Source: an uncultured Verrucomicrobiae bacterium (GTDB lineage Bacteria > Verrucomicrobiota > Verrucomicrobiia > Chthoniobacterales > UBA10450). Taken from it: a stretch of 64,000 nt of DNA. The DNA is taken from positions 352,001 through 416,000 of the forward strand of contig CAVWPA010000003.1 of NCBI GenBank assembly GCA_963756875.1, in the 5' to 3' direction. Below the pieces are notes generated by a model that saw nothing but the letters and a program-made list of their open reading frames with translations, ran no database searches and had not been told where the DNA came from. The position numbers and the translations under genes are program-made. Positions 29,490 to 51,012 of the stretch are shown here, piece by piece (the stretch's first letter is position 1; the number at the start of each line of letters is the position of its first letter).

Positions 29490-29928
29490 CGTCGGGTTGT
29501 CGTTTGACCGCGAATTCCGGCAGCGGCTTAGGCGGGGGGCCGGATATTACGCGGCCGTTGAGATCGTAGCGGCCATCATGGCAAGGGCACCAGATGATCG
29601 ATTGGCCTGGCAAATAGGTGACCGTGCAGCCTTCGTGCGTGCAAACGGCGCTGAATGCGAGCAGTTGCTCGCCGTGAGGTTCCAAAACGATTGCGCGCTG
29701 TCCGCTTACCGGAACGATGACAAATTTATTCTTCTCCAGCTTGCCAGTCTCCTCGCGCGTCAAACGCGTCGGCCCGGTAGGTCCGGCTTGCGGCAGCGGC
29801 TTGAGATAACGAATCACCGGGTAAACAACACTGGCCAGCCAGCCCAGAATGCTTGCGCTTAGCAGAAGATCGAGAAAAGCGCGGCGTGATGTTTTTGGAC
29901 TGGATGCCGCTTCCGTACGCTCTTCCAT
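29455..29928 (-). CDS. Rieske 2Fe-2S subunit
   Basis: Tat motif SRRAFL plus TM; CTHEGC and CPCHDG boxes; GPPPKPL. Confidence 0.94.
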   Translation of the reverse strand: MEERTEAASSPKTSRRAFLDLLLSASILGWLASVVYPVIRYLKPLPQAGPTGPTRLTREETGKLEKNKFVIVPVSGQRAIVLEPHGEQLLAFSAVCTHEGCTVTYLPGQSIIWCPCHDGRYDLNGRVISGPPPKPLPEFAVKRQPDGAIVISPEQKA

Positions 29929-31982: not shown

Positions 31983-33148
31983 GCCAGCGCCTTTCGTCGC
32001 TTTTTCGAGAACCCAACAAGATGAGAGCCGAACTGCACAAGCAACCCGGCAGCCACAATAACGCACGCGATGTAAGGCGCCATGAAGCTCGGATTGTGCA
32101 CCACCTGCAAAATCGTCGCTGTATCTCCTTTCTGAAATCCGGCCTGGTAAAACGTCTCGCCGCGGTAACGCAACGGATGGTTCATGTAGATGAGAACATC
32201 GCGGTCCACCGAGCGCTCGGGATCGATCAGGGTAATCTTGCTCGCAAAATTCTTGGGGATGTCGGTCCCGGCATAGCGTTCGTGCGTGAACTTTTGCAAC
32301 GTGACGCTGTAGGGCTCGTAATAGCGCTCCGGACGCAGCGCAATCATCCATCTGCGGCCGCCGCACCAAAATGTTTGTGGCGCGCCGAGCGCGTCCGAAA
32401 CCAGCCATGTGCCGAGCGGAACACCCGATTGCTTCGGAACAATTTGGATGGCCGCGCTCATCACGTCCTGGTCGTTAACGCCCGTGACTGGTGGCGCCGG
32501 CTCGACGGCAACCTGGGCGCCGGGGCCGCGATTTGCAATCGGCTGGATGTCGTTTCCTGATTCGCCCACCATCCGGAGGTGCGAGTTCTGATAAAAGTTC
32601 TTCACCACAATTCGGAACGGCAAACTCCAATGATCGATCGTTCGATTGCGCCGCAGCACAGCATCCGGGATCGCGGTCACCTGATCGAAGTCGCCGCCGC
32701 TGATGTCGATCACGGCCAATTCCATTCGCAGCGTGTCCTCCGAATAGTTTTTTGTTTCGCCGCGAGTGAGCCGCATGTGGCTTTCGACCGCGAAAAGATC
32801 GGTGAAGAGGCCGCCGGCAAGCAAGATAATCAGGCCGGCGTGCGTGAGATGGATGCCGAGCTTGCGCCACGTCCAGCGAAAACGTTTCGCGTGAGCGGCG
32901 ATGAGATTAACCAGCAGGATGGCGCCGATGAGATGGCCGCCGGGGAAAACAGGAACTTTAAAACCTGGCCCCTGCGACGACGGATACCAGACGAACAAAC
33001 TTTGGAAATAGCGCTGCTGCGCTTCGTGAATGCCAAGATGAACCTGGGCAAGCGTGCCCGCGAAGATAAGCGCCATCGCGGCCGCCAGACACACAATGGT
33101 TAGCTTGAGAGAGGTGAACAGATCAACGAGCCGCCGCCACATTGCCAT
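31979..33148 (-). CDS. resB: Cytochrome c biogenesis protein ResB/CcsB-like
   Basis: SLKLTI...GTLAQ, GIHLTHAG, PKNFAS, IYMNHPLRYRGETFYQ. Confidence 0.88.
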   Translation of the reverse strand: MAMWRRLVDLFTSLKLTIVCLAAAMALIFAGTLAQVHLGIHEAQQRYFQSLFVWYPSSQGPGFKVPVFPGGHLIGAILLVNLIAAHAKRFRWTWRKLGIHLTHAGLIILLAGGLFTDLFAVESHMRLTRGETKNYSEDTLRMELAVIDISGGDFDQVTAIPDAVLRRNRTIDHWSLPFRIVVKNFYQNSHLRMVGESGNDIQPIANRGPGAQVAVEPAPPVTGVNDQDVMSAAIQIVPKQSGVPLGTWLVSDALGAPQTFWCGGRRWMIALRPERYYEPYSVTLQKFTHERYAGTDIPKNFASKITLIDPERSVDRDVLIYMNHPLRYRGETFYQAGFQKGDTATILQVVHNPSFMAPYIACVIVAAGLLVQFGSHLVGFSKKRRKALA

Positions 33149-34244
33149 CAGGAATTAAACTGGATCGAGCGAAGAAAGTCTAAGAATTTCGATTTTTCCT
33201 GCTCAACCATTGGGCTAGGGCCGCTCATTTTGAAAAACCAGGTCCGGCCGTCCCGCCGTATCCACGCGGTGACAACCCGTGAATCGCTCCCCGCGAGATC
33301 GACGGTCGAGAAATCTGCGCTCCCTGCATTTAGCGGGACAATCGCCGCTGCGGCATCCTTTTCATCAAGCGGCGCGAGGCCGATTTGTCCACGCCAGCGG
33401 TTGACGTTGGCGGGATCGTCTCCGCCAGTGCCGGGAAAAGTAACCACAGAGATGTCGAGCTTGCCGCCATTTTCGCCCGACACGCTGAAGCTCGCGTAGC
33501 GCATCGCTGATGGCGGAACTTCCTTCCAATCAGCCGGCGCTTTCCATTTGATCTGTGGCGCGCCTGATTTCTGCGGCGGCGGCGGCATCGCCGCCATGTC
33601 CGGCGCTTTGTTTGTCGTCTGCGCGTTGCAAACAGCGGCAACCCATTTGATGAAATCGCTCTTCTGCGCCTCGGTCAGCGCGGCGTTTCCGCGCATTTTG
33701 AAAAACAGCGTCGAGCTGCTGGTGGGGGCCATGGCTGCAATAATTCTTCCGTCCTTGGCCGCGTCAGCGCCTTGCGGGAGTCCCGCCAGATCGAAAATCA
33801 GCACGTCTCCAATCGACGTAGTAAGCCGCTGCGCAATCCCGGCGAGTTTTTGCTGAGTGATCGGCGGCTGGCCAAGCTGGGAGAGCCAGCGATTCACATT
33901 TTCGAGCTCGTGTCCCGCGGCGGGGCCCAGGCTCACCAGTGAAATGTCCACGACGGCGCCGTTGTCGCCCTTAACCAAATAGCTGGCCCGCCGCATTTGA
34001 GAGAGCGGCTGCGGCTGCCAGCTCGGCGGCGTTGGGTACCTGTCGAGGTCGCGACCGGGGCCATTCCGCCTGAAAACGCGGGCGTAGCTTCGTTCGTCGG
34101 CATCGCGTTTTGCTGCCCGGGCGCGGCTTCCTCAAGGGGGGCCTTTGAGACCCGATACACCTTAATTTCTGCTTTTCTTTGGCACCCGGCGGCAAGCACA
34201 ACCACGACGAGCGCGCCCACCAAGAAAAGACTTCGCTCGGTCAT
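33148..34244 (-). pseudogene. Lipoprotein with two repeated domains at the head of the ccs operon; one frameshift near 34035
   Basis: Lipobox LAAGC is in one frame and PTPPSWQPQPLSQMRRASY continues in another. Adding one C to the CCC run (ggg at 34034-34036) gives a 365-aa ORF. Confidence 0.75.
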
Positions 34245-34501
34245 TGAGGAGCGAATATTACAACATGTTCGCTTCAGAGCGCTAGCCCAATGTTCAAGAA
34301 AATCATGTCCTAGCCCGGGAACTGGCGAAGGCTTTAACCGCGCGTGGCGCGTCGTGATCGCGACCGCCCGACGCACAGAGAAACTTGATCAACTCATGCG
34401 CTTTAACTTGTTTTTTTCTTGCGGGGCACAAAGCTAAAGGGCTACAACTCAAGGCGCGGTGCAGTAAAACGAGTAACTCGTTCGCCAAATATTCATTCTC
34501 G

Positions 34502-35950
34502 ATGGTTTCAAGGCCGAATCAGCCCCTGCTTGTTCTGCTAACGGGCCACTCGCTGAGCCTGATCGGTTCAGGGCTTGTTACGACGGCGGTTATTTTGCGG
34601 CTTTTTGTGGTGCCGTCGAGCGCGGGCGGCCCGGTGAGTAACCCGCATATCGGCATCCTCGTGTTCATTGGTCTGCCGATTGTATTTTTTGCCGGGTTGG
34701 CGCTAATTCTGATCGGCCTGTGGTGTTTTGAACCGGCGATTCCAAAAAGGTCTCGTGGAGGCTGCAGGTTATCGGAAGGTGCCGTTCCTTCAGTTGTGTG
34801 TAGAAAACGTCGCGCGGGCCTTCAGGTCGCGCTGCTGATGGTGACGTTGCCCTTGGCGCTCCATGCCGAGGAGGTGGATTGCCTGTCCTGCCATGCGGAC
34901 AAGAGCCTTCAGAACGCAGCAGGACAAAGTGTCACCGTGGATGCGCAAAAGTTTAGAGCGAGCATACACGGCAGTCTGAACTGCACCGATTGCCATACCG
35001 GGATCCAGGATTATCCCCATCCGGAACACCCCGCGCTTGCCAGATGCGATTCGTGCCACGCCGACGAGGTAGCAGCCGTCCACGGCAGTGTCCATGCCTC
35101 CGCCAGCGCACATCTGTGCACCGGCTGTCATGGAGATGCCCACGCGATCACCTCGAAGGACAATCCGCAGTCTCCGGTGTATGCACTGAATGTGCCCCGC
35201 ACGTGCGGGTCCTGCCACAGCAATCCGGACCTGGCAAGGAAACATGGCTTGACCAATGTCTATGCGATGTACATCGATTCCATTCACGGATTCGCTCTTA
35301 GTAAGGAAGGACTGCTGGTGGCCGCAAACTGCTCGAGCTGCCACGGAACACATCGCATCTTGAGTCGAACAGACCCGCGAAGCTCCACCTATAGAAGGAA
35401 CATTCCAGACACATGTGGAACCTGCCATGCAGGTATAAAGGTTGATTACCTCGCCGGCGCGCACGGAAGGGCCCTCGAAGCCGGCAACCTTAAGGCGCCG
35501 GTATGCACCGACTGCCATACCGCGCATCAGATCTCCGCGCCTCGGGAGGTGGCGTTTCAAGTGAGAACGACGGCTACGTGCGGCACGTGCCACCGGGAAA
35601 GGTTGACAACCTATCGGGACACCTTCCATGCGCAGGTGTCGGCGCTGGGCTATTCGGAAGTGGCGCGCTGCTGGGACTGTCACGGAGAGCACCGAATTCT
35701 GCCCGCATCCGATCCCAGGTCGCCGGTCAATAGGGCGAACTTGATTGCCACTTGCGGCAAATGCCATAGTAGCGCCAACGCGAGTTTTATTAGCTATCGA
35801 CCGCATGCGAATGCACGCGACCGCAGTTCGAACCCGACACTCTATTTCATCCGGGTCTTTATGAACGTGCTCCTGTGGAGCGTACTGGGATTTTTTGCCT
35901 TACACACCATATTGTGGTTTATCCGTTCGCGGTTCCCTAATAGGAAATGA
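34502..35950 (+). CDS. 11-heme cytochrome c (CbcL-type c domain) with an N-terminal ImcH-like membrane remnant
   Basis: 11 CxxCH motifs counted, C-terminal TM, internal signal-like segment ...PLALHA|EEVDCLSCH. The true start is uncertain. Confidence 0.88.
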   Translation: MVSRPNQPLLVLLTGHSLSLIGSGLVTTAVILRLFVVPSSAGGPVSNPHIGILVFIGLPIVFFAGLALILIGLWCFEPAIPKRSRGGCRLSEGAVPSVVCRKRRAGLQVALLMVTLPLALHAEEVDCLSCHADKSLQNAAGQSVTVDAQKFRASIHGSLNCTDCHTGIQDYPHPEHPALARCDSCHADEVAAVHGSVHASASAHLCTGCHGDAHAITSKDNPQSPVYALNVPRTCGSCHSNPDLARKHGLTNVYAMYIDSIHGFALSKEGLLVAANCSSCHGTHRILSRTDPRSSTYRRNIPDTCGTCHAGIKVDYLAGAHGRALEAGNLKAPVCTDCHTAHQISAPREVAFQVRTTATCGTCHRERLTTYRDTFHAQVSALGYSEVARCWDCHGEHRILPASDPRSPVNRANLIATCGKCHSSANASFISYRPHANARDRSSNPTLYFIRVFMNVLLWSVLGFFALHTILWFIRSRFPNRK

Positions 35951-35973
35951 GACATCGCTGACCAGACAGAATA

Positions 35974-36819
35974 ATGACCACAAAACACGAGGAAATCCGC
36001 GGCGAAGATCGATACTTCCTCCGTTTCAGGCCGGACCAAGTATATCTTCACGCCATCCTTGTCGGCACCTTTCTGGGTTTGGCCATGACTGGACTGCCGC
36101 TTCGCTTCAGCAACACAATCTGGGCAGCCCGCTTTGCGCAGGTCGTGGGCGGATTCGGCGCCATCCTCTTCTTTCACAAGTTCTGCGCTGTGGTCCTGAC
36201 GGCAGCCTTTCTGGTTCACGTGGCGCACATTCTAAATCGCGGGCTGATTCGCAGGGAGACTGGCATTTTCTGGGGGCCGACATCTATGGTCCCTCAGTGG
36301 AAGGATCTAGTCGATCTATTCGGCCATCTGCGGTGGTTTATTGGACTTGGACCAAGGCCGCAATTCGAGCGCTATGCGTATTGGGAGAAGTTTGATTACT
36401 GGGCAGTCTTCTGGGGAATGGTCATCATCGGTTTGTCCGGATATGTCATGTGGTTCGCGCCATTCTTTGCCAGATTCCTGCCCGGTTGGGCCTTAAACGC
36501 CGCACTCGTCATACACGGCGAGGAAGCCCTGCTCGCGGTTCTATTCATTTTCGCTATCCATTTCTTCAATGCTCATCTTCGCCCGGATAGTTTCCCAATG
36601 GATCTGGTTATCATGACCGGCAGGGAGAGCGAAACGGAATTTCAGAAAAAGCGTTCGCTGGAGTATCAGCGGCTTGCCGGCCAGGGAAACCTGGAGGCGA
36701 GAATCGTCAGCAAGCCCCCGCCGCCGTTGGTAAAGTTCAGCAGGGTGGCGGGATCCATCGCTATTCTGATCGGGTTGGTGCTTCTGGTGTTGACGTTGAT
36801 CGCTTATTTCAGCGAATAA
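35974..36819 (+). CDS. FdnI/HydC-like diheme cytochrome b (CbcL-type b domain)
   Basis: YLH, LAMTGLP, FFHKF, LVH, YWEKFDYWAVFWG, IHGEEALLA, IHFFNAHLRP. Confidence 0.9.
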   Translation: MTTKHEEIRGEDRYFLRFRPDQVYLHAILVGTFLGLAMTGLPLRFSNTIWAARFAQVVGGFGAILFFHKFCAVVLTAAFLVHVAHILNRGLIRRETGIFWGPTSMVPQWKDLVDLFGHLRWFIGLGPRPQFERYAYWEKFDYWAVFWGMVIIGLSGYVMWFAPFFARFLPGWALNAALVIHGEEALLAVLFIFAIHFFNAHLRPDSFPMDLVIMTGRESETEFQKKRSLEYQRLAGQGNLEARIVSKPPPPLVKFSRVAGSIAILIGLVLLVLTLIAYFSE

Positions 36820-36948: not shown

Positions 36949-38427
36949 TTAGAGCAGGTCGCCGGTATGGCACTCATAGCATTTCATATCGCCGTAATCG
37001 CCTCCCGGATGGGCGAACAGCTGACCGCGTGCATCAAGTTGATCAAGTTGCGGGCCACTGCCCTGGGCCAGGATCATGTGACAGGCGTTGCAGTCATTGG
37101 TAATAGTCTTTTTGCCGTCGGCGGTTTTGTGTTGGCCGTCGTGGCAGCGGAAACAGCCGGCCCAGTTCCGGTGGCCGATGTCATCGGGATAAACTTTCCA
37201 GTTGGCTTTCATCTCGGGGAAAAAGTTCTGGCGGTAAATGCGCTGGACTTCGTTGATCGCCTGCCGCGCCCGCGCGTCGCCGGGATAGTACGAGGCCAGT
37301 TTGGTGGCGATCTTCTCCAGCCCTTCGGTTCGCGTGGCATAGCGCTGCGTCAGCACTTCCACGGCGTGTTTTTTGATGAACGGCAACGTCCGATCGATCT
37401 GGCCCAGCGCGATGGCCAGGTCTACGGCAATATCGGGTGGCTGGAAGTTGTGTGACGGCCGGTTGTGGCAGTCCATGCAGTCCATCCGCCGGATTTGAGA
37501 TGCATCGATTTTGTTCTTGAAATCCGGCGTGCTGAATTCGGCCACCACTCCCTGGTAATCAGTCATGCGCACCCAGGGGATAGTCTGGCGGGTGTTGTCG
37601 CTGGCGATGTATTCGATTTTGTTGGCGACGTTCATGTGCCAGTGAATGCCGCCCACCGGTCCGTGCGTTGCATCGGCGCCGCCCACCTTAATCAACAGCC
37701 GCACGGCATACGGCGTGTTCTTTTCGTCCGCCAGAAAATGCCGAAACGTCCGATCGAGATTGCCGACAAATTTCTTTGGCCAGTGGCACTGCTCGCAGGT
37801 TTGCTGGGCGGGGCGCAGGTTCTTGATCGGCGTTTCGATCGGGCGCGGAAACCTGTTGAACAGGACCGCATATACCTGGTAGGTGCCGCTGATCTTCGAT
37901 TTCACAAACCAGGTCGCGCCGGGCCCAATGTGGCATTCTGTGCAAGCCACCCGCGCGTGCGGCGAGTTTTCGTAAGTAGTCAGTTCCGGGCTCATGACGG
38001 CGTGGCAGGCCTGGCCGCAAAACTGGACCGACTCGGTGAAATGATAGGTTTGGTAACTGCCGAACGCCGATAAAAATAAGAATCCAACGCTGACCACGGC
38101 GAAGATGCCGAAGATTTTCCGGTCGCGCGGCCGTGACAAGTCAATTTTGATACCGAGAGGTTCAGCCACTCGCACGGCGCGGCGTCGCGTGCGCCAGCGA
38201 ATAAGTGCACCAAGCAACGCGAAAAAGATTCCGACAACAAAAAACAGCGGCGCAACCAAGTAGGCGAGAATGCCGACATACGGATTCGGATAACCGGCGA
38301 ACAGGTCGATCGTGAAAAGGAGAAAAAACGAAAAAAGCGCGCTGGCGGCGAGGACCATTCCCGACCAGCTAAGCCAGTTGCGGAAATTGCGCCTGAAAGG
38401 CCGGGGCTGCGCGGGACCTTCAGGCAT
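36949..38427 (-). CDS. ImcH-like inner-membrane heptaheme cytochrome c (NapC/NirT domain)
   Basis: 3 N-terminal TMs, TESVQFCGQACH (CX3CH), SPHARVAC, and 6 CxxCH motifs (CTECH, CEQCH, CMDCH, CFRCH, CNACH, CYECH). Confidence 0.88.
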   Translation of the reverse strand: MPEGPAQPRPFRRNFRNWLSWSGMVLAASALFSFFLLFTIDLFAGYPNPYVGILAYLVAPLFFVVGIFFALLGALIRWRTRRRAVRVAEPLGIKIDLSRPRDRKIFGIFAVVSVGFLFLSAFGSYQTYHFTESVQFCGQACHAVMSPELTTYENSPHARVACTECHIGPGATWFVKSKISGTYQVYAVLFNRFPRPIETPIKNLRPAQQTCEQCHWPKKFVGNLDRTFRHFLADEKNTPYAVRLLIKVGGADATHGPVGGIHWHMNVANKIEYIASDNTRQTIPWVRMTDYQGVVAEFSTPDFKNKIDASQIRRMDCMDCHNRPSHNFQPPDIAVDLAIALGQIDRTLPFIKKHAVEVLTQRYATRTEGLEKIATKLASYYPGDARARQAINEVQRIYRQNFFPEMKANWKVYPDDIGHRNWAGCFRCHDGQHKTADGKKTITNDCNACHMILAQGSGPQLDQLDARGQLFAHPGGDYGDMKCYECHTGDLL

Positions 38428-38479
38428 TACTCGATTACCGGTTGCGGATCTTTGGGAACTACGGGCTGTTTGGCAGCCT

Positions 38480-38644
38480 CTGTCATTCCCAGGGAGGTCG
38501 AGAATGGAGCGGCTTGGGAAGCCGCAGCATAGGCGAAAAGGCCGAAGGCTGAGCGAGCGCGAACCGAGCAAATCAAATCTCTAATTGCCACAGCCTGGCT
38601 CCGGAATGCAGTAAGAGATGTCTCGACTTCACTCGACATGACAG
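38480..38644. repeat. Degenerate REP-doublet/MITE-like element
   Basis: Imperfect terminal inverted repeats TGTCATTCCCAGGGAGGTCGAGA / TCTCGACTTCACTCGACATGACA (18/23 match) and an inner ATCTCT/AGAGAT pair. Confidence 0.65.
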
Positions 38645-38881: not shown

Positions 38882-39196
38882 TTATTTCTTGAACGAGCGA
38901 ACATAGGCCACGAGCGCCTTGATCTCGTCGTTGGAAAGCTTGCCCTTAGATCCCTTCATCTTCTCCTTGCCGTTCTCGATGATTTCGGTCGCTTGCGCGT
39001 CGGTGAATCCGGCCTGCACCTTGGGGTCGCGGTAATCCTTGATGCCCAATTTCTTGCCCATCATCGTGCTCCCGCTGCCATCTTTTCCATGGCAGCCTGC
39101 ACAATGCAGGCTCCAGTTTGCCGCCGCGTCCGCTGCGAACGCCACGCCTCCCGACGCCATGATTGCTGCTAATACGAGCGATATTTTTCGTTTCAT
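38882..39196 (-). CDS. Periplasmic monoheme class I cytochrome c
   Basis: Signal peptide AFA|AD, CAGCH, candidate distal Met in EKMKG, terminal LVAYVR helix. Confidence 0.93.
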   Translation of the reverse strand: MKRKISLVLAAIMASGGVAFAADAAANWSLHCAGCHGKDGSGSTMMGKKLGIKDYRDPKVQAGFTDAQATEIIENGKEKMKGSKGKLSNDEIKALVAYVRSFKK

Positions 39197-39530
39197 GAGA
39201 TTAAGCCTTTCGTTCTTTATGCAAGATTTGACGCAAAAACTTCAATTTGCTTCACAGCAACATTGGAGCCGACTGCCGACAATGGCAACTCTGAGCAAAG
39301 GCGCGAAATTCGTCAATCTTCAGGGAGACGTGGCTTGGCGGGATTTGCCCTGGCAAAGGTAAATGGGGCTCGCTGCAAGCCTGGGCTCACCCATTGTGGC
39401 ACGCACGGGCATTTGCGATGGGGTGGAATCGGCCGCTCCGCGGGCGATGTTATAATAATAAATGCGGCTGCGCCGCCTGACTTACCATCGAGCTCGGAGA
39501 GCTCGATCCACCTTTTAGCCCCCGGGCCGT

Positions 39531-39860
39531 TTATTTCTTCAGCGTTCGCACGTAGGCAACGAGCGCCTTGACATCATCGTCGCCGAGCTTACTGCCGAAG
39601 GCTTTCATCACCATCTTGCCGTTTTCCTTTTTGCCGTTCTTAATCGCGTCGGCCGCCTCGGCGTCGGTGAAAGAGGCCTGAACCTTCGGGTCGGTCAAAT
39701 TCTTCGCGTTCAGAATCTTTCCCATCTTTGTGTCGGCGGCGCCGGTTTTTCCGTGACACTGCGCGCAGTTATTGTCCCAGTTTGTCTTCGCGTCTGCCGC
39801 GCGAGCAGACAGAGGCAGGGTGGCAAGCAGGCCGAGAGCGATGATGAGGATTGTTTTCAT
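39531..39860 (-). CDS. Periplasmic monoheme class I cytochrome c (paralog)
   Basis: Signal peptide ARA|AD, CAQCH, VMKAF, LVAYVR. Confidence 0.93.
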   Translation of the reverse strand: MKTILIIALGLLATLPLSARAADAKTNWDNNCAQCHGKTGAADTKMGKILNAKNLTDPKVQASFTDAEAADAIKNGKKENGKMVMKAFGSKLGDDDVKALVAYVRTLKK

Positions 39861-39957
39861 AAAAAGAGTCTTTTCTGAATGGTGCTAATCAATTAAGCCC
39901 GGCATTTGTTCGCGTGCAAGCTGGCATCTGCCCGGGCTTTGCCGAGAGACGGGTTGA

Positions 39958-40048
39958 CTGTAGTGGCAGCCGTGTCGGCTGCGTTACCGCCCTGCGGGCG
40001 ACACGTCCGCCGCTGGGCGGACTCGCCGCGGTGAGCCTGCCTCTACAG
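39958..40048. repeat. GTAG-type REP doublet (REPIN-like)
   Basis: Inverted ends CTGTAGTGGCAG...CTGCCTCTACAG; internal hairpins GCAGCCG-tgt-CGGCTGC and GCGGGCG-aca-CGTCCGC. Confidence 0.7.
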
Positions 40049-40086
40049 AACCAAGCAACAGGCTCTTCAACAACGCCAGTTACGCC

Positions 40087-42247
40087 TTAGAAGCGATACT
40101 GCAGACTCGAAAAGAACGAGTGAGCGTTGTAATTGTTATGCCCGCCGGAAGTCTCGTCGGTATAATGAAAATAAGCGTAGCGTAGCATCAGGCGCACGTT
40201 CGTGGTGAGCTGCCGGCTGATGCTCGCCGAGACGGTGTGTTCAGTCGCGTCCATGCCGAAGGGCAGTGAAGCGTCAATATTGTTCACGTAATCGTTCGCG
40301 CGATAATACGTGTAATCGGCGTGGAAATCGGTCTTATTATCGATGATAAAGCCGGCGCCGCCGGTTACCGTCCAATAATCGTTTTGGAAATTCAGGACAG
40401 TAGGGGCGCTGTCGGTAACGATAATATTGGATGCCGGTGTCTTGGTCTCATCGAGGACATAGGAAAGGGTGCCCTGGAGGTAAAGTCGGGCGAGCGGGTT
40501 CCAGGTAAGCGTTTCTCCAATCACATGGCTGGTGATCAGCGCAGTATGCTCGTCGGCCAGTTTCGTGCCCAGCCCGTCCAGGGACCACATGCCGCTTATA
40601 AGAGTCTGCATGTAGTCGTAGCGGGTCACCATGGAAAGCGTCCCCAGCGACGCCGGGATATTCGGCCGGAAATTAATCCGAATATTGAAATCGTTTGTGT
40701 TCCAATCCTGGCTCTGCAATCGCTGGCCGCCGCCCTCGTCAGTTTTGAAGTCGTTGTCGTACTCTGCGGCCTTATAATGGTACTCGCCGGAGAGACTGAG
40801 GTTCGGCATCGTGTACCAGTTCGCGCCAATGGCGTACTTTTGGCCAAGAAGAGAAGTGTCCTTGTTCAGCAACGCCGCAAGCGAGCCGTCGGCGACTGAA
40901 TGCTCGTGCACGTTGCCGCATTCTTCCGTCCACTCGCCTTCCGTCCAGAAAAGCCAGTTGTTAATGCCAGTGTAACGGGCCTCGAGCCGCTCCGCAAAAT
41001 TGTCGAAGTCTTGTGACGTATCGGCGGATTCCGGCTCGAATATAGCGGCTCCGCCCGTGCTTCGTCACGTTCGTGCCCAGGAAAGTGGACCAACTATCGT
41101 GGTTCTCGTGCGTGTAGCGGAATCCGCTGAGCAACGTCAGGTCCTTGATGGGCATCCAGTAAAGGTTGGCATTAAAAAGGTGGTCGCTTACTTCCGACGT
41201 CCCCGCCAGATCCAGGAACCCTTCGTCGTGGTTTTGAGATATAGAAAGCGGCGAGACGAACATGGAATTGTAATCGGTCCCGATGATGCGGGTGCCTGAA
41301 ATATCGCTTCCGAGGGTGGTGTAAGAATAACCTGCCGTGAACCAGAACGTGTCGCTGAAGCGCGTCTCGGTAATCACATGTCCGTTAAACAGGTCCAGGT
41401 CATTCTGATCGTGCTGGGTGATGTAACGCTGAGCGGCCGGGTTCCCAACGCTCCGCTGGAGCTGCAACCGGTCGTCGTTGTTGTTATGCTCGTAGCGCAT
41501 TCCAAGGTCGATATCGGTATTCCCAAAAGTCTTCGACGCGTCGAACGAAAGAATGTCACGTGTCTCGTCGATGTTCCGGAACGCGGGCGCGATCTTGCGC
41601 GTTCCAGCGGGCGTGCTGGTGTCGCCCCAGCTGGTCGAATCCTTGTCGCCGTTTCGAAACTCGTGCGAGTAATGGATGGTGATCTCGGGCCAGTCTGGCA
41701 TCCGCAGGCCAAGTTCCACCCAGGCGATCCCGCGATCGAGCGTGAGCTCATGATACCGCGGCGGAATCCAGGCCCCGCCGTCGGCCGGTGCAAAGCCGCC
41801 GTTATCGTCGTACCAGCTTCGAAACTCCGTGTAACCGCCGCGGATATATCCCAGGCCCGGCTGGGACAAATCGATCTTCACGTCGTAATCGTGATTGTCG
41901 AAAATGGCGTGACCATCGACGGTCAGCGTCGCATTCTTGCCGACGCTTCGTTCCAGATGCAGGTCCTGGATGCCGCCGAAAACATCCCCGGAAATCCGGT
42001 GTTCCTGTTTAAATTGCGCCGCGTCGCCATTGATAATATTCCCGCCGATTCCGATCTCGACCCAGTTTTTGTACTCCGGCGTCTGTTCCGTCGCGCCGGC
42101 TACCGCCGATTTTCCGTCCGGTGTCCCCGTCCCGTCAGCCGTGACTCCGGCGCGCAGCGGGTAATTTGCGCAGACCAAGGCGCAGAAAAGCAACGCGAGG
42201 TTGCGCGCGAACCGACCTCCACCAGTTGAGATGCAAATCGCGCTCAT
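40087..42247 (-). pseudogene. MtrB/PioB-like outer-membrane beta-barrel porin with one frameshift near 41062 (genuine or a sequencing error)
   Basis: Signal peptide, alternating beta-strands and C-terminal beta-signal SLQYRF. Removing one A in GTG ACG A AGC ACG joins ORFs 40961-42247 and 40087-40911 into 719 aa. It lies 11 nt downstream of the MtrA-like gene. Confidence 0.82.
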
Positions 42248-42258
42248 ATTAATATCAA

Positions 42259-43173
42259 TTAGAATCTGAAATGCTCATTAACCTGAGATCCATGGATTGC
42301 TTCATGACAGCCGGCCGACCAGCAGGTCCCCTGCTGCAGGAAGCTGGAATGGTTGACATCTCCAATGAGAATCGTGCCGGCGGAAGTTTGCTGCTCGAAA
42401 TGGCACTTCAAACAGAGCGTCTGGTTCCGCTCGTTTAGCATTCGTTGATTCACCGAGCCATGCGGCGAGTGGCAGACCACGCAACCGTCGCGCACTGCCT
42501 CGTGTTCGTAAACAAACGGACCCCGTTGCGCGGTATGGCACTGGAAACAGATCTCATTTTCGCCAAGGAACGCGATGCCGCCGCCCTTGAGTGTCTGTTG
42601 CATACTGGTGCCGCCGCCTTTCATCGCCCTTCCCGCATGCGGGTTATGGCAATCGACGCAACTCATTTTGCCTTCCAGCACCGGGTGGTGATGCGGTAGT
42701 TCAAATTTCGCGCGTATCTCAAGATGGCACTGGAAACATGCCTCTGGCGATCGGCCGGGATTGATGATGGATCCCCGGCCCCCGCCGTTCGCAACATGGA
42801 TGCTTCCCGGGCCGTGACACGATTCGCACCCGATGTTTTTCGCGTTTTCTCCCTTTGTCATCAAACGGCCGTGCGTCGCCGTTTTGAAACTGCGCACGAT
42901 ATCTCCGTGGCATGTTTCGCAAGTATCGGAGCCGACATACTCGGCGCCGGGAATACTCGGCGGCGCCATGATGGTGCGATTGGTTTCGAAATTACTGCAC
43001 GAAAGCAGAATCACGGTCAGTGCGACCGTTCCCCCGACGCCCCACAACAACCTTTCGCGCTTACCATGGACCAATCGAGTTAGCCTTTGATGCCACACGC
43101 TACGCAGTTCTATCAGAAGCGCATTTGGTCGACTACGCATTTTTACGGCTAAAATTTTGCTCTGGAATTTCAT
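42259..43173 (-). CDS. MtrA/DmsE-like multiheme cytochrome c, octaheme lipoprotein
   Basis: YVGSDTCETCH, CESCHGPGS.H, HHPV.EGKMSC.DCHNPH, RGPFVYEH, CHSPHGS, IHGS. 7 CxxCH plus CWSAGCH; lipobox ILLSC. The true start may lie downstream. Confidence 0.9.
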   Translation of the reverse strand: MKFQSKILAVKMRSRPNALLIELRSVWHQRLTRLVHGKRERLLWGVGGTVALTVILLSCSNFETNRTIMAPPSIPGAEYVGSDTCETCHGDIVRSFKTATHGRLMTKGENAKNIGCESCHGPGSIHVANGGGRGSIINPGRSPEACFQCHLEIRAKFELPHHHPVLEGKMSCVDCHNPHAGRAMKGGGTSMQQTLKGGGIAFLGENEICFQCHTAQRGPFVYEHEAVRDGCVVCHSPHGSVNQRMLNERNQTLCLKCHFEQQTSAGTILIGDVNHSSFLQQGTCWSAGCHEAIHGSQVNEHFRF

Positions 43174-43195: not shown

Positions 43196-43585
43196 CTATT
43201 CGTGGCCGCGCCAAGCTCGATATTCCGTGGGAGATTTTTTGTGGAGCTTTTTAAAAACGCGATTGAACTGCGACAACGATTGGAAACCGACCGCAAAGGC
43301 AATCTCGCTGATCCGAAAATCTCCGTTTCGCAGGAGCTGGCGCGCTTTCTCAATCCGTGTGCGAGCGACGTAATCGACGAACTTCAGGCCGGTGACGGTC
43401 TTGAACTTCTCGCTCAAATGGTTTGGGCTGATCTTGACTGCCTTGGCCACTTTGGCCAGGGAGAGTTTATCCGCCGAATGCTCCTCGATGAATTGACGTG
43501 CTCTCCAAATGTCCACGGGTTCGGCCCGATGGCCGTTGCGGCCCGGTGATTGGGAAAAGCGATCGAGGCGCGAGATCGGTTCCAT
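43196..43585 (-). CDS. AraC-family regulator (HTH domain only)
   Basis: RIEKARQLL...ISEIAFAVGFQSLSQFNRVFKK...SPTEYR. Confidence 0.92.
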   Translation of the reverse strand: MEPISRLDRFSQSPGRNGHRAEPVDIWRARQFIEEHSADKLSLAKVAKAVKISPNHLSEKFKTVTGLKFVDYVARTRIEKARQLLRNGDFRISEIAFAVGFQSLSQFNRVFKKLHKKSPTEYRAWRGHE

Positions 43586-44096: not shown

Positions 44097-44208
44097 TTGA
44101 GCAGGCGTGATTTACCCCCGCGGGCGTTGGCAACTGCCGGAAATGCGGCTGCGCAAAGATTTCAGAATGATGAAAAATGAATCGACCATGTCCGATTATG
44201 TTGCACGC

Positions 44209-45909
44209 ATGAAGCCCCCGAAGAAATCTTCGCGCTCCTCTCCGGATTCTTTTCCCGCCACGATGCCCCTGGGGCAGTTTCTTTTCGAATACCTTTATCG
44301 CCGCGGCGTCCGCCACAGTTTCGGCATTCCAGGCGACTTCGCGCTTTCCACTTTTGTCTGGCTTGAAAAATCAAAAATCCAAAGCGTCACAACGACCCAT
44401 GAGCCTTGCGCCGGATTCGCCGCCGATGCTTATTCCCGCATCAATGGAATCGGTCTGGTCTGTGTTACCTACTGCGCCGGAGGTTTGAATGTTTTAAATG
44501 CCATCGCGGGCGCGTATGCCGAGAAATCGCCGGTAGTGGTCGTCAGCGGCGCGCCCGGCCGGAAAGATCGGGAAAAAGATCCGCTCCTTCACCACAAGGT
44601 GAAAACGTTCGAGACCCAGCGGCGAGTTTATGACGAAGTGACGGTTGCCAGCACTGTTCTGCTGGATGAGCAGCGGGCCGCCTCGGAGATTGTCCGTTGC
44701 GTTGAGGCATGCTTGCGCCACAAACGGCCGGTTTACATTGAAGTTCCGCACGACATGGTCGATCGCGAAATTCCGGTGAACGGCATTTCGGCCGGTATCC
44801 CTGAAAAATCCGATCTTCAGGCACTTGAGGCGGCGCTTGACGAGACGTTCTCCCTGATCCGCGCCGCAAAAAAACCGGTCATTCTCGCCGGAGTCGAACT
44901 GGCGCGCTATCGTACTGCGGGACTGGTCGTGCGGATGGCGGAGCGGATGAATATTCCGATTGCCGCCGATCTTTTAAGTAAGAGCGCGGTTCCTGAAAAT
45001 CATCGCCTTTATCTTGGCGTTTATGGCGGCGCGATGAGCAGCGACGAGCACGTTCGGAAGTATGTTGAGTCCGCCGATCTCGTTTTGATGCTCGGCACCT
45101 TTATCACCGATATGAGCATGGGCTTCTACACGGCGAAGCTCGACCGGAAGCGGACTGTCCTGGCGACGTCGGAGCGCGTGAACGTTCAGTATCACCGCTA
45201 CGAATCGATTCAGTTCCGCGATTTTCTCCAGGCACTGGCCACGGCAACGATCAAGCCCAAGCAGTTCAAACATCCGAACCCGCATGCCGCCCCTGTTCCG
45301 CTGAAGAAGGGCGAGCGCTCGGATCCGTTGGCGGTGGTTGATGTGTTCCGCATTCTTTCGTTGCACCTGGACGAGCGCTGCTGCGTTGTCGCCGATATCG
45401 GCGACGCCATCTTCGGCGCAGTCGGGATTCGCAGTGCGCGACAGGCGCAATTCATCGCGCAGGCATATTATATGTCGATGGGCTTTTCGGTGCCGGCCAG
45501 CATCGGCATTGCCCTGGCCAGTTCCAGGCTTCGCCCTTATGTCCTGGTCGGTGATGGCGCCTTTCAAATGACCGGAGCCGAAATCTCCACTGCTGTCCGG
45601 CTTGGGCTCAATCCCGTTATTATCATCCTCAATAACGACGGCTACGGCACCATGCGAAAAATCCATGATGGCAAGTTCAACGTCATCACCCAGTGGAACT
45701 ACGGCAAGATTTGCGAATTGGTTGGCGGTGGTGAAACCGCCAGGGCAACCACCAAGGGCGAGCTGGACGACGCCATCCGTGGCGCCCAAAAATCCGGCAA
45801 GTTAACTGTCATCGAAGTCAAAATTCCGCGTGACGACATGAGTCCTCAGCTGGCGAGAACCAGCGTCGAAGTCGCAAGAATGCGCGGCTGGAAAAAAGGC
45901 TCTGCCTGA
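44209..45909 (+). CDS. ThDP-dependent 2-oxoacid decarboxylase (indolepyruvate/pyruvate decarboxylase family)
   Basis: FGIPGDF, HEPCAGFAADAY, LLHH, GDGAFQMTG...NNDGY. The start is uncertain (44107-44263). Confidence 0.9.
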   Translation: MKPPKKSSRSSPDSFPATMPLGQFLFEYLYRRGVRHSFGIPGDFALSTFVWLEKSKIQSVTTTHEPCAGFAADAYSRINGIGLVCVTYCAGGLNVLNAIAGAYAEKSPVVVVSGAPGRKDREKDPLLHHKVKTFETQRRVYDEVTVASTVLLDEQRAASEIVRCVEACLRHKRPVYIEVPHDMVDREIPVNGISAGIPEKSDLQALEAALDETFSLIRAAKKPVILAGVELARYRTAGLVVRMAERMNIPIAADLLSKSAVPENHRLYLGVYGGAMSSDEHVRKYVESADLVLMLGTFITDMSMGFYTAKLDRKRTVLATSERVNVQYHRYESIQFRDFLQALATATIKPKQFKHPNPHAAPVPLKKGERSDPLAVVDVFRILSLHLDERCCVVADIGDAIFGAVGIRSARQAQFIAQAYYMSMGFSVPASIGIALASSRLRPYVLVGDGAFQMTGAEISTAVRLGLNPVIIILNNDGYGTMRKIHDGKFNVITQWNYGKICELVGGGETARATTKGELDDAIRGAQKSGKLTVIEVKIPRDDMSPQLARTSVEVARMRGWKKGSA

Positions 45910-45967
45910 TTGCGGATAGAGAGCTCACGACTCGACACAGCCGCAAACATCGGTTGTTGGCTTCCGG

Positions 45968-45994
45968 CCTTCTCTTCTAAATAGGAAGAGAAGG
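45968..45994. terminator. Hairpin between convergent genes (putative terminator)
   Basis: CCTTCTCTTC-taaatag-GAAGAGAAGG, a perfect 10-bp stem. Confidence 0.6.
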
Positions 45995-46004
45995 TCCCGT
46001 GCTA

Positions 46005-47369
46005 TCAGGACACGTGCTCAAATTGTGCCGTGAAGTGTCGCAAAAAGGGCGGCTCAAAGACTATTTTAAAGCCCTTGAGGCCATTTTTTCTTCGGGCGAT
46101 TCCTTCGAATCCCTCAAGAATGTAATCAAAATGACTTTGAGTATAGACCCGGCGCGGAAAGGCCATGCGGACCAGTTCCATCGCCGAGTTTTTTCCAAAC
46201 ATTACGGAACCGACTTCACAGGCCCGGATTCCCTCAGCGCGGTACATTTCGCAAACCAGAGCCTGCCCGGGAAATTGTTCGGGCGGGATCTGCGGGAGCA
46301 AAGCCCTGGCATCGATGTAAACGGCGTGACCGCCCGGCGGTTGAACCGTCGGAACACCGAGCTTGTTCAGACCTTGCGCCATGTATTGAGTCACCGCGAT
46401 TCGATAGGAGAGATAGCGTTCATCGAGAATCTCTTCCAGTCCGACCGCGATAGCTTCCAAATCCCGGGCCGCCAGGCCGCCATACGTCGGGAAGCCTTCT
46501 GTCAAAATCAACGCGCTGCGCAAGGTATGCAGCCACGTGTCGGCCTTGAGCGCAATGAAACCTCCGATGTTCGAGAGGCCGTCCTTTTTGGCGCTCATCA
46601 TGCAACCATCGGCGAGTGAAAAAGTTTCCAGGGCGATCTCGCGGACGTTGCGCTCACTCTGCCCGGTCTCGCGGAGTTTGATGAAGTAGCTGTTCTCGGC
46701 AAATCGACAAACATCCAGAATAAAGGGAATCCCGTATTTTTTGTAGATGACGGCCGCGCCGTGAAGATTCTCGAGGGAGACGGGCTGTCCGCCTCCGGTA
46801 TTATTGGTGATCGTGAGCATGCCCAGTGGAATCCGGTCCTTGAATTCTGCGCAAAACTCTTCGAGGCGCTGGAGATCGATATTGCCCTTGAATGGATGTG
46901 GATTTGCCGGATCTCTGCCTTCGGCGATGACGAGATCAACGGCTTCGCCGCCCAGTTGTTCAATATTGGCGCGAGTCGTGTCGAAGTGATTGTTCGATGG
47001 GATTTTCATTCCCGGCTTTACCAATGCGCCAAAGAGAAGGCGCTCGGCCGCCCGTCCCTGGTGCGTGGGGATGACATTCGGATAGCCGGTCAGATTTTTC
47101 ACGACTCTCTCGAATCGCTCGAAACTTTGCGATCCGGCGTAGCTTTCGTCGGCGATCATCATGGCGCCCCACTGAGCGGCGCTCATGGCCGATGTCCCGC
47201 TATCTGTCAGGAAATCAAAAGTGACATGCCTGGCGGCAACCAGGAAAAGGTTGTAGCCCGCTTTCTCAAGAATCTTCTCGCGCTCACTCCGGCTGAGCAT
47301 CGGAAGCGGCTCGACCATCTTGATCTTGAAAGGCTCGATAATCGTTCTTTGAGATTCGGGATCGTTCAT
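46005..47369 (-). CDS. tnaA: Tryptophanase (tryptophan indole-lyase)
   Basis: Beta-eliminating lyase fold, MSAKKD PLP lysine, Trpase-type residues HFDTTR, IRACEVG and LRHFTA. Confidence 0.85.
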   Translation of the reverse strand: MNDPESQRTIIEPFKIKMVEPLPMLSRSEREKILEKAGYNLFLVAARHVTFDFLTDSGTSAMSAAQWGAMMIADESYAGSQSFERFERVVKNLTGYPNVIPTHQGRAAERLLFGALVKPGMKIPSNNHFDTTRANIEQLGGEAVDLVIAEGRDPANPHPFKGNIDLQRLEEFCAEFKDRIPLGMLTITNNTGGGQPVSLENLHGAAVIYKKYGIPFILDVCRFAENSYFIKLRETGQSERNVREIALETFSLADGCMMSAKKDGLSNIGGFIALKADTWLHTLRSALILTEGFPTYGGLAARDLEAIAVGLEEILDERYLSYRIAVTQYMAQGLNKLGVPTVQPPGGHAVYIDARALLPQIPPEQFPGQALVCEMYRAEGIRACEVGSVMFGKNSAMELVRMAFPRRVYTQSHFDYILEGFEGIARRKNGLKGFKIVFEPPFLRHFTAQFEHVS

Positions 47370-48815
<1,446 letters not shown>

Positions 48816-49489: not shown

Positions 49490-49966
49490 ATGATGGCTGA
49501 AATGTTGCAAAAATTTTATCCTCATCTCCTCGCATTCCACGGATTGCTGCGCTGGTTTGTTCTGGCAACCGCTATCGTGGCGATTGTCGTTGCGGCCTCG
49601 GGTTGGAGCGGCAGAAAACCTTCCGGCCCTGCGCTTCGCCGATTCAGCATCCTGTTCGTCGCGTTCATGGACCTGGAATTTCTGGTTGGCCTGGTTTTGT
49701 ATTTCTGGGCTAGCCCGCTCATAAAAACAGCGTTTCAAAACATGTCGGCGGCAATGAAGGATCATCAACTGCGCTTCTTCACTGTGGAACATACGACATA
49801 TATGTTGCTGGCGGTTGTGTGCGCTCATGTTGGAGCCGCTCTCGCAAGAAAAGGCAGGACCGACCTGATGAAATATCGGGGCGCCACGATTTCATTTTGC
49901 CTTTCGCTGCTCCTCATTGTCGCTGGAATTCCGTGGTGGCGCCCATTGCTGCGGCTCGGTTCCTAG
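49490..49966 (+). CDS. 4-TM membrane protein, possibly binding heme b
   Basis: HGLLRW, RFFTVEH, AHVG, IPW; His residues in or near TM helices. Confidence 0.7.
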   Translation: MMAEMLQKFYPHLLAFHGLLRWFVLATAIVAIVVAASGWSGRKPSGPALRRFSILFVAFMDLEFLVGLVLYFWASPLIKTAFQNMSAAMKDHQLRFFTVEHTTYMLLAVVCAHVGAALARKGRTDLMKYRGATISFCLSLLLIVAGIPWWRPLLRLGS

Positions 49967-51012
49967 CCGGAGGAGGCGGAGACATGAGATTTATTTCTTG
50001 TCGCCCAATCCCCGATCATTTTCTCCAAAGCTGCGATCCATAATGGATGCTCGTTGAGACAAGGAATCAGGGTCAACTCTTCGCCGCCACATTCGCGGAA
50101 TTTTTGCCGCCCGCGGATGCCGATTTCTTCCAGCGTTTCGAGACAGTCCGCGACGAAAGCAGGACAAATCACCAATAACTTTTTTGTTCCGGCTCTGGCC
50201 AGCGCTTCAATCGTGCGATCGGTGTAAGGTTGAAGCCAGGGATCCCGCCCAAGGCGCGACTGAAAAGCGATCGAGAATTTGTCGCTCGGCAGGCCGGCCA
50301 GCTCAGCAAATGCCTTCACTGTTTTAAAGCACTGCGCTCTGTAGCAGGTATCGTGTGCCGGGCTGCGTTCCGCGCAGCAGTTGTTTCGGGCCAGACAGTG
50401 ACAGTTCGTCGGATCGGATTTACGCAGATGCCTCTCGGGCACGCCATGAAAGCTGAAAAGTAAATGATCGTATTTCTGCCGCAGATAATCCGCTGCGCTC
50501 CCGACCAAGGCCGTAATGTAATCGGGCTGATCATAATAAGGAGGCATCACGCTCAGCGATATTTCCGGCGCGAGTTTCGATAGTAGCTGTTGTACACGAC
50601 GGACTGCGGTCTCGTAGCTCGACATGGCGTAATGCGGGAACATCGGAATCAGGAGCAGCTCTTTTACATTCTGCGCGCGCAGCTTTTCGATTGCTTTGCT
50701 GATTGACGGGTTTTGGTAGCGCATGGCCAGCTCGACCGGCAGGCGGACGCGCGCCTGCAATTCATCCCGCACTTTGAGACTGGTCACCACCAGGGGCGAG
50801 CCTTCCGGCGTCCAGATTTTATCGTACGCCTCGGCGGATTGCTTTGGGCGCGACGGCAAGATGGCAAGATGAACGATGCCGAACCGAATCGGATAGGGCG
50901 CATCCAGAACGCGCCCGTCCATGAGAAACTCGCGCAAATACTTCCGGACGTCGCCCACGCCTGGGGAAGCCGGTGAGCCAAGATTGACGAGTAAAACACC
51001 GCGCCCGATCAT
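49963..51012 (-). CDS. hemH: Ferrochelatase
   Basis: LLVNLGSP, AMRYQNP, FSFHG, FQSRLG..PWLQP, FVADCLETLEEI. Confidence 0.95.
   Translation of the reverse strand: MIGRGVLLVNLGSPASPGVGDVRKYLREFLMDGRVLDAPYPIRFGIVHLAILPSRPKQSAEAYDKIWTPEGSPLVVTSLKVRDELQARVRLPVELAMRYQNPSISKAIEKLRAQNVKELLLIPMFPHYAMSSYETAVRRVQQLLSKLAPEISLSVMPPYYDQPDYITALVGSAADYLRQKYDHLLFSFHGVPERHLRKSDPTNCHCLARNNCCAERSPAHDTCYRAQCFKTVKAFAELAGLPSDKFSIAFQSRLGRDPWLQPYTDRTIEALARAGTKKLLVICPAFVADCLETLEEIGIRGRQKFRECGGEELTLIPCLNEHPLWIAALEKMIGDWATRNKSHVSASSG

Follow-up and report, generated by a model that had tools for sequence, protein, structure and literature searches.

The locus described here raises the question of whether a short run of cytochrome and porin genes in a Verrucomicrobial genome encodes an electrical path through the outer membrane and, if it does, in which direction electrons would travel along it. 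The genes lie in a stretch of 64,000 nucleotides (nt), here called the window, from an uncultured Verrucomicrobiae bacterium of the order Chthoniobacterales (assembly GCA_963756875.1, contig CAVWPA010000003.1, positions 352,001 to 416,000; G000:C3:352001-416000 in our labelling), whose genome, G000, amounts to 2.69 Mb in 3 contigs and is 87.6% complete. A preliminary description had read from this DNA the order octahaem cytochrome, porin, two small cytochromes c and a NapC-domain cytochrome, and the order stands, all five genes being on the minus strand, with the NapC-domain gene lying outside the interval (38882-43173) to which that description was attached. Our reading is that the locus probably encodes a Verrucomicrobial trans-outer-membrane electron conduit of the MtrAB type, together with its periplasmic and inner-membrane connections.

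The first component of the putative conduit is an octahaem cytochrome c of 304 amino acids (aa; 42259-43173), with seven CXXCH motifs and one CX4CH motif. Its best matches among curated models are the DmsE and GSU2203 families. The model of the DmsE/MtrA decahaem family, TIGR03508, gives 167.0 bits (E 5.2e-49), below its cut-off of 192.2, and NF041028 gives 184 bits against a cut-off of 325; the protein has eight haem motifs where the decahaem family has ten. Residues 84-297 align with residues 135-324 of PDB chain 6r2q_A (E 3.1e-26), which we take to be MtrA, and the alignment covers the last eight of the ten haem motifs of that chain, through the common C-terminal CH..HGS. Among 74 aligned orthologs the 16 haem cysteines, including those of the CX4CH pair, are invariant (each motif being present in 72-74 of the 74), and so are eight further histidines, which fits eight bis-His haems. 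An LLSC lipobox with its cysteine at residue 59 occurs in all 73 octahaem sequences that span the site. The octahaem is a shortened relative of MtrA and DmsE and a predicted lipoprotein.

A search of 1.84 billion representative sequences returned 5134 relatives of the octahaem at E <= 1e-3, 189 of them at E <= 1e-30, and these relatives fall into two classes, one with eight haems and a length of about 245-277 aa, many of its members carrying a lipobox, and one with ten haems and a length of about 290-370 aa. All 14 representatives of the eight-haem class scored 142-175 bits with TIGR03508, the best stretch lying at about model positions 110-257, and the cut-off of that model is exceeded by 50 of the 54 rows with nine or ten motifs; one additional row with eight motifs is a truncated decahaem. 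In a quick, unrooted IQ-TREE tree of 72 rows, from which the fragments P0294 and P0333 were left out, 16 of the 18 eight-haem rows form a single clade (SH-aLRT 94) that is nested among the ten-haem rows.

The second component is a porin of about 720 aa (40087-42247), whose gene starts 11 nt past the octahaem gene and is read in two frames, a matter to which we return below. It has 88 full-length homologs of 750-845 aa, the closest of them 62% identical. The Pfam family of MtrB and PioB (PF11854) matched neither piece of the window porin, nor any of five close and three distant homologs; of 45 aligned full-length homologs it matched three (best E 2.7e-6), and generic barrel models matched 21. 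The fold was examined on homolog P0001, which is 62% identical to the N-terminal part of the window protein, and not on the broken gene. As a sequence P0001 had no match in the PDB at E <= 1. Its AlphaFold2 model (pLDDT 79.3, pTM 0.72) has 26 long strands, the number found in MtrB, and its top PDB match is the MtrB chain 6r2q_B both by Foldseek (E 4.5e-16, TM 0.54/0.63) and by VIA-align (Z 23.0, root-mean-square deviation 3.9 Å, 580/649 residues); the runner-up in VIA-align is a TonB-dependent transporter (Z 19.8, 448 residues, 6.3 Å). The porin is MtrB-like in its modelled fold, with no clear match to MtrB at the level of sequence. Two further observations concern the wider family. Its structural neighbours in the ESM Atlas include a Verrucomicrobial cluster automatically named MtrB/PioB, which is a lead only, and the open reading frame (ORF) of some remote porin relatives also encodes a haem motif or a PSCyt1 cytochrome domain, as in L135:9924-12374 and a row of the ESM Atlas.

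The association of the two genes was followed in a scan by porin alignment, with one genome per species, that yielded 254 relatives; the locus counts given here refer to the best 80 of the 254, almost all of which come from Verrucomicrobiota metagenome-assembled genomes of soil and peat titled Chthoniobacterales, ‘Spartobacteria’ or Ca. Udaeobacter. In 72 of the 72 loci whose upstream DNA extends to 900 nt or more, the porin gene is immediately preceded by that of the octahaem, and an adjacency of this regularity shows that the arrangement is not due to chance. Within 9-10 kb downstream of the porin, which could be followed in 56 loci, a monohaem cytochrome c is encoded in 50, an ImcH-type cytochrome in 39 and ResB in 50, and the block of monohaem and ImcH genes stands either directly after the porin, as it does in the window, or after the ResB and CcsB genes. 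A more distant sample of 18 porin loci from other families, fetched with 10-kb flanks, gave a similar picture: all 18 have the octahaem adjacent, 16 encode a monohaem cytochrome c and 13 encode ImcH, and in several of these loci, from other Verrucomicrobial families, the four genes make up a tight operon (with gaps of at most 4 nt in L118).

The phyletic distribution was counted over 61 genomes of the source family, among them one (G122) that matched the query for a second, decahaem cytochrome only, and these counts describe a pattern only. The porin occurs in 18 of the 61; the octahaem occurs in the same 18 and in none of the 43 porin-less genomes. The claim that the monohaem shuttles are part of the module fared well, as a monohaem cytochrome c accompanies the porin in 18 of 18 genomes and is found in one of the other 43; for ImcH the corresponding figures are 15 of 18 and one of 43, and for the nonahaem subunit of a Rieske/cytochrome b complex 14 of 18 and one of 43. 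With regard to this last complex it was observed that the nonahaem subunit co-occurs with ImcH, all 15 genomes that have it falling inside the 16 with ImcH, and that family genomes without ImcH have a different b/Rieske pair, about 35% identical and on the opposite strand. A broader sample yielded the porin from 8 of 121 genomes at the level of the order and from 21 of 301 at that of the phylum, where it is concentrated in family f19 (13 of 26), a family with complete genomes that point to the existence of isolates.

What would connect such a conduit with the interior of the cell? The two small cytochromes encoded after the porin are monohaem class-I cytochromes c with signal peptides, the first at 39531-39860 (Pfam Cytochrome_CBB3, E 5.4e-13) and the second, a paralog with 54% identity to the first, at 38882-39196. 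Across 114 carrier orthologs the histidine of the CXXCH motif (His36) and Met85 are invariant in every sequence and there is no second invariant histidine, so that the carriers are assigned to the His/Met class-I cytochromes. The best PDB match of the first carrier is the Kuenenia cytochrome c-552 (7o38_A, E 4.6e-13). MtoD was considered as the nearest solved relative of the carriers and set aside, as it was absent from 25 PDB matches at E <= 0.01.

The NapC-domain cytochrome occupies an ORF of 540 aa at 36949-38571, or 492 aa (36949-38427) if translation starts at Met49. Published accounts define ImcH by three N-terminal transmembrane helices, an atypical CX3CH motif beside the last helix and six CX2CH motifs, with a stretch homologous to NapC/NirT and a length of about 495-519 aa (PMC4251993; PMC6295460, as far as these features are set out there). 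The window protein has three hydrophobic helices (peaks at residues 73-91, 106-124 and 153-171), a CGQACH motif of the CX3CH kind at residue 185, 14 residues past the third helix, followed by six CXXCH motifs, and a NapC/NirT region at residues 154-241 (PF03264, Cytochrom_NNT, E 8.7e-11). One CX3CH and six CX2CH motifs are present in 42 of 42 full-length orthologs from the related loci, and homologs of 490-501 aa at about 63% identity stand among at least 8000 candidates at E <= 1e-3, in a family that is very large and well conserved. The protein has every one of these architectural features, and by its architecture it is of the ImcH type.

A further question is whether the conduit has a partner on the cell surface. 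The preliminary description had stated that no second outer-surface multihaem lipoprotein occurs in the window, and a scan for CXXCH motifs bears this out: the octahaem is the sole lipoprotein cytochrome of the window, the 11-haem, 9-haem and NapC-domain proteins having no lipobox. It had also proposed a search of the remaining genome, and here a six-frame CXXCH scan listed as other multihaem genes a decahaem protein of about 1280 aa with LVIVD repeats, a frameshifted 6+4-haem gene, a pentahaem and a trihaem, on which the Pfam MtrC/MtrF domain gave noise-level matches only. Taken together, the motif scan and the noise-level domain matches indicate that there is no MtrC-like partner in the window, nor in the genome within its 87.6% completeness. 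The 9-haem protein of locus L076, the extra cytochrome of a relative, likewise found no homolog in the source genome, at that completeness, when used as a query. Such a gene, with at least nine haems and adjacent to the pair, is present in 2 of the 80 close loci (L074 and L076, where it lies directly upstream of the octahaem) and in 4 of the 18 distant ones (L124, L125, L130 and L133), and since it is confined to a minority of loci the two-component form is the norm in this order, three-component forms occurring elsewhere in the phylum.

The decahaem-LVIVD protein (C3:1061513-1065349), the only other large multihaem protein of the genome, was examined as the missing surface partner and rejected, its distribution being independent of that of the porin: among the 61 genomes both are present in 8 (8.6 expected), the porin only in 10, the decahaem only in 21 and neither in 22. 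The barrel encoded beside it shows no relation to the porin family (hhalign probability 0.2). It belongs to what may be a second outer-membrane pair in its own right (G000:C3:1061513-1067600; L084:8511-14605, minus strand), with the barrel gene followed by that of the decahaem-LVIVD protein. The barrel-like protein has 714 aa, a signal peptide and a ...TLTY end, with no Pfam match, and the decahaem protein has a weak ExtM-like match (69.8 bits against a cut-off of 800) and is 72-88% identical in 29 of the 61 family genomes.

The mechanism that we propose from these parts is as follows. The octahaem would be anchored in the outer membrane’s inner leaflet and would thread the adjacent MtrB-like barrel of 26 strands, so that its last haem would reach the cell surface. 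One or two of the soluble His/Met monohaem cytochromes would link it to the ImcH-type oxidoreductase for quinol and quinone in the inner membrane, and in most relatives the Rieske/cytochrome b/nonahaem complex would be available as well. When oxygen is short, electrons could then pass outward from quinol to ImcH, to the monohaem cytochrome c, to the octahaem and so to an acceptor. The exposed terminal haem would most likely react with soluble or colloidal partners, such as humic quinones, chelated iron and possibly manganese, and not with mineral surfaces, because there is no dedicated surface cytochrome to extend the wire beyond the barrel.

The direction of flow is the least secure part of this proposal. 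The preliminary description held that sequence alone cannot fix it, and this proved correct, as the pointers go both ways. We favour outward flow under oxygen shortage, with roughly even confidence, and place a fully reversible port next in likelihood. In Geobacter, ImcH is reported to be required for extracellular acceptors of high potential and to pass electrons to a small periplasmic cytochrome (PMC4251993), and in a preprint purified ImcH is described as reducing the periplasmic PpcA. The account of ImcH homologs in PMC6295460 places them in Fe(III) reducers only. A cluster of porin and octahaem genes was found in humic, mostly anoxic water, according to the description given there (He et al. 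2017, PMC5615132). RuBisCO was not found in the source genome, at 87.6% completeness, and this, like a heterotrophic way of life, we count for the outward direction. In the same phylum, Limisphaera isolates are described as respiring ferric citrate and ferrihydrite and as possessing porin-associated multihaem cytochromes, which may or may not be of the present family (PMC13608581).

Several points weigh against this reading, some against its direction and some against the conduit as such. The periplasmic carriers of metal reducers are multihaem proteins of low potential, and monohaem cytochromes c with His/Met ligation are typical of Fe(II) oxidisers and of chains that end in an oxidase; the source genome has three loci for haem-copper oxidases. 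A conduit of two components that lacks a surface cytochrome is the pattern described for MtoAB and PioAB (PMC6344600, in its treatment of these systems). ImcH is missing from 3 of the 18 porin genomes, including one that is 98% complete (G029), and the identification of ImcH is by architecture, not by alignment with the Geobacter protein GSU3259. The structure model of the octahaem is poor (pLDDT 46.3, pTM 0.23) and cannot be used, so that the threading of the barrel is drawn from homology and adjacency. The co-occurrence counts overstate the support for the module, because related genomes are not independent of one another; the window’s own porin is interrupted; and the function of the module is a proposal from sequences and models.

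Two other directions of flow have to be considered. The first, which we put forward tentatively, is that the four genes form a bidirectional ‘redox port’, a mobile accessory unit of abundant aerobic Udaeobacter-type Verrucomicrobia of soil and peat. Composed of a minimal MtrA with a lipid anchor, a barrel of the MtrB type, a monohaem cytochrome c of the His/Met kind and ImcH, it would discharge electrons to humics, chelated Fe(III) or manganese in anoxic microsites and, once oxygen returns, supply the oxidases with electrons taken up from Fe(II) or reduced humics. Such a port might manage without a surface cytochrome because its anchored wire of eight haems would just span the membrane and meet its partners directly.

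The second possibility, to which we give no greater probability and which is on balance doubtful, is that the locus serves for uptake. Fe(II) or reduced humics would be oxidised at the exposed haem, and electrons would pass to the octahaem, to the monohaem cytochrome c, presumed to be of high potential, and to a haem-copper oxidase, with ImcH or the Rieske/b complex working in reverse to feed some of them to the quinone pool. The same class-I carriers with invariant His and Met, and the same three oxidase loci, that count against outward flow speak for this view, as does the rarity of a surface cytochrome in this order, where an adjacent 9-haem gene is present in only 2 of 80 loci. The gene order also parallels mtoA-mtoB-mtoD-cymA as described in PMC6295460, and the Rieske/cytochrome b complex travels with the module. 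Against uptake stand the restriction of ImcH homologs to Fe(III) reducers in that account and the failure to find RuBisCO in a genome of 87.6% completeness; moreover, in none of the 98 loci examined does the conserved module contain an oxidase gene, and in some relatives (L074, L076, L124 and L130) the pair is joined by a further large cytochrome, as is the case in reducers. The outward path remains the one that we prefer.

A rival of another kind concerns this copy of the conduit only and would apply whatever the direction of flow. The porin gene is split into two frames of 428 aa and 274 aa. Its N-terminal part lies at 41060-42247, in a frame whose ORF continues to a stop at 40961, and its C-terminal part at 40087-41059, in a frame that is open from about 41066 and ends with the beta-barrel signature ...LQYRF. 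An alignment with the intact ortholog of 719 aa in locus L080 (81% nt identity), in which there is a single gap, places one additional base of the window near 41,055-41,060, and it is this base that splits the porin. Further along, the gene of a conserved protein that we call unk282 differs by 2 nt from its intact ortholog in L059 near position 34039. It could be argued that the porin and unk282 are truly frameshifted and that the conduit of the source genome is a recent pseudogene in a decaying module. Two frame breaks inside a single cytochrome island of 17.7 kb would be in keeping with such decay, as would the 14 stops in the porin of genome G169 and the accessory nature of the module, which 43 of the 61 family genomes lack. 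This scenario is nevertheless rather unlikely, as each gene has a single break beyond which the frame stays fully open and conserved, and as unrelated genes of the same genome are also broken.

The pattern of broken genes fits a different cause. Split porins concentrate in assemblies of few contigs, as expected for the insertion and deletion errors of long reads: the gene is split in 4 of the 11 family assemblies with at most 10 contigs (G000, G054, G121 and G145) and broken in one of the seven with more than 10 contigs, which is G169. Elsewhere in the source genome a COX1 gene breaks at model position 238 into two frames that adjoin each other (G000:C1:382950-384303), and the gene of the 6+4-haem cytochrome falls into two frames that overlap (G000:C3:98908-100357). 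A public soil read run contained a fraction of 0.08 of the words sampled, and the contigs made from it leave 40810-41472, the region of the break, uncovered. It is fairly likely that the breaks in the porin and unk282 are long-read errors of this kind rather than signs of decay.

Finally, the notion that the barrel and cytochrome work for one particular enzyme outside the cell or in the periplasm, as DmsEF does for dimethyl sulfoxide (DMSO) reductase, or have some other non-respiratory redox role can be set aside as very improbable: the closest curated model is indeed that of the DmsE family, which includes such conduits, but in the 80 and 18 loci the pair has no conserved neighbour that encodes a reductase or an oxidase, its conserved partners being cytochromes c and ImcH.

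The conduit genes are set among others that concern cytochromes. Directly upstream of the octahaem gene lies that of an AraC/XylS-type regulator of 129 aa (43196-43585, minus strand), which consists of the helix-turn-helix domain only (Pfam HTH_18, E 1.6e-24); by a strict count a homolog is found upstream of the octahaem and porin in 53 of 78 loci. A scan for promoters was at noise level (5 found against 4.0 +/- 2.5 expected), and so was one for terminators (14 against 8.9 +/- 3.3), the hairpins including some 3' of both monohaem genes. Beyond the ImcH gene, at 34385-36819 on the plus strand, lies a divergent pair that encodes an 11-haem membrane-anchored cytochrome and an FdnI/HydC-like cytochrome b and resembles a split CbcL-like unit. 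It was considered as a core part of the module and rejected, being found in only 2-3 of the 61 family genomes: the source genome, its nearest relative G136 (locus L059, 95-97% identical) and, as a weak match, G166. The pair is a lineage-specific insert.

The remaining genes of the island are again on the minus strand. The protein unk282 (from 33148 to 34300 or 34376, in two frames), conserved and unassigned in function, has an N-terminal lipoprotein-like signal and two internal repeats (...NVNRW...), with no match in Pfam or NCBIfam, and in most related loci it adjoins the genes for ResB and CcsB. These two proteins of System II cytochrome c maturation are encoded in the window at 31979-33148 (ResB; Pfam ResB, E 9.3e-21) and from 30066 to about 31976 (CcsB; Pfam Cytochrom_C_asm, E 1.4e-24; TIGR03144, E 8.7e-38). 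They are followed at 26521-29928 by the genes of the Rieske/cytochrome b/nonahaem cytochrome c complex (Pfam Rieske, Cytochrome_B and Cytochrome_C7), whose nonahaem subunit has a C-terminal anchor.

Some observations on the rest of the window may be added. Genes for ferrochelatase, a protoporphyrinogen-oxidase-like protein and uroporphyrinogen decarboxylase (49963-54915) place haem biosynthesis less than 7 kb from the cytochrome island. Between them and the regulator, at 44107-48764, a gene for a decarboxylase-like protein dependent on thiamine pyrophosphate stands divergent from the AraC gene, a position beside the regulator that is kept in many related loci, and is followed by two tandem genes for beta-eliminating lyases of the tryptophanase/tyrosine phenol-lyase family. 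On the other side of the island, at 23295-24040 on the minus strand, an ORF of 104 aa corresponds to the first ~37 residues’ worth of PPDK_N and stands beside one of 144 aa without a match; it is probably the remnant of a phosphotransferase gene. Farther away, at 7915-17355 on the plus strand, a protein of 3146 aa with GH94 supersandwich, catalytic and glucoamylase-like domains agrees in length and domain content with a cyclic beta-1,2-glucan synthase-like enzyme.

The Chthoniobacterales and the Verrucomicrobia of the Udaeobacter type rank with the most common bacteria of soils and are regarded as aerobic heterotrophs. If the proposal is true, a working conduit in about one third of the family genomes (18 of 61) would tie these organisms to the redox cycling of humics and iron in soil and peat. 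This would bear on carbon turnover and on the suppression of methane, as He et al. argued for bog water in the part of their paper that deals with it (PMC5615132). The module would also offer a compact and portable test system for how many haems a conduit needs and for what sets its direction.

How does the locus compare with what has been described before? The closest precedent is the ‘novel porin-MHC’ cluster that He et al. (2017) reported from Verrucomicrobia, including Ca. Udaeobacter, and for which they proposed extracellular electron transfer to humics; their description gives a porin of 20 strands or more, next to it a cytochrome whose eight haem sites are conserved and, sometimes, a gene for an extracellular multihaem cytochrome (PMC5615132). 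Compared by description, the likeness lies in a large-barrel porin that adjoins an eight-haem cytochrome in Verrucomicrobia, including Udaeobacter, and the window is a new member of the kind of porin and octahaem system proposed in 2017, not a new kind of system. Yet in that description the system is called non-homologous to those of Shewanella and Geobacter, whereas we find a clear MtrA/DmsE homolog and a modelled MtrB-like barrel; the cytochrome is predicted there to be periplasmic, whereas it has an invariant lipobox here; and the section of the text on the cluster does not mention the linkage with monohaem cytochromes c, ImcH and the Rieske/b/nonahaem complex (PMC5615132). The MtrA homology, the lipobox, the MtrB-like fold and the linkage with ImcH and the monohaem cytochromes are thus new here, although earlier figures or tables may already show some of them. 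Our literature search found no publication that joins ImcH, the porin and Udaeobacter.

Shewanella MtrCAB (PDB 6R2Q) shares with the window the MtrA homology, the MtrB-like barrel and the adjacency of the two genes. The window cytochrome differs in having eight haems, which correspond to MtrA haems 3-10, instead of ten, and in being itself the lipoprotein, a role that falls to the surface partner in Shewanella; no MtrC or OmcA was found within the completeness given above, the barrel has no clear sequence match to MtrB, and the inner-membrane partner is of the ImcH type and not CymA. Among MtrAB-type systems the module could be the shortest wire found so far, with eight haems, a lipid anchor and no surface partner.

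The resemblance to the Fe(II) oxidisers, MtoAB-MtoD-CymA of Sideroxydans and Gallionella and PioABC of Rhodopseudomonas, was central to the preliminary description, and it holds in part. The two-component conduit without a surface cytochrome, the small carrier encoded next to it and, as in the Mto cluster, a NapC-domain cytochrome in the same cluster make up a conserved analogue of mtoA-mtoB-mtoD-cymA. The likeness does not extend to the parts themselves: the window cytochrome has eight haems with a lipid anchor and not ten, the NapC-domain protein is of the ImcH type with seven haems and three transmembrane helices where CymA is a tetrahaem, some relatives have an extra large cytochrome, and the hosts are heterotrophic Verrucomicrobia in which, as far as the source genome is complete, RuBisCO was not found. 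The carriers differ as well, being invariantly of the His/Met kind, whereas MtoD is a bis-His cytochrome and PioC a high-potential iron-sulfur protein.

With the ImcH-PpcA-Pcc chain of Geobacter (OmaB/OmbB/OmcB) the module has in common a cytochrome of the ImcH type, a small one in the periplasm and one with eight haems that is paired with a porin. The carrier is here a monohaem of the His/Met kind and not a trihaem, there is no OmcB-like lipoprotein, and all the parts are encoded together. To our knowledge this is the first case of imcH in one operon with an MtrAB-type pair, and in the portion of the survey by Zhong and Shi (2018) that treats imcH no mtrAB or mtoAB genes are recorded next to it (PMC6295460).

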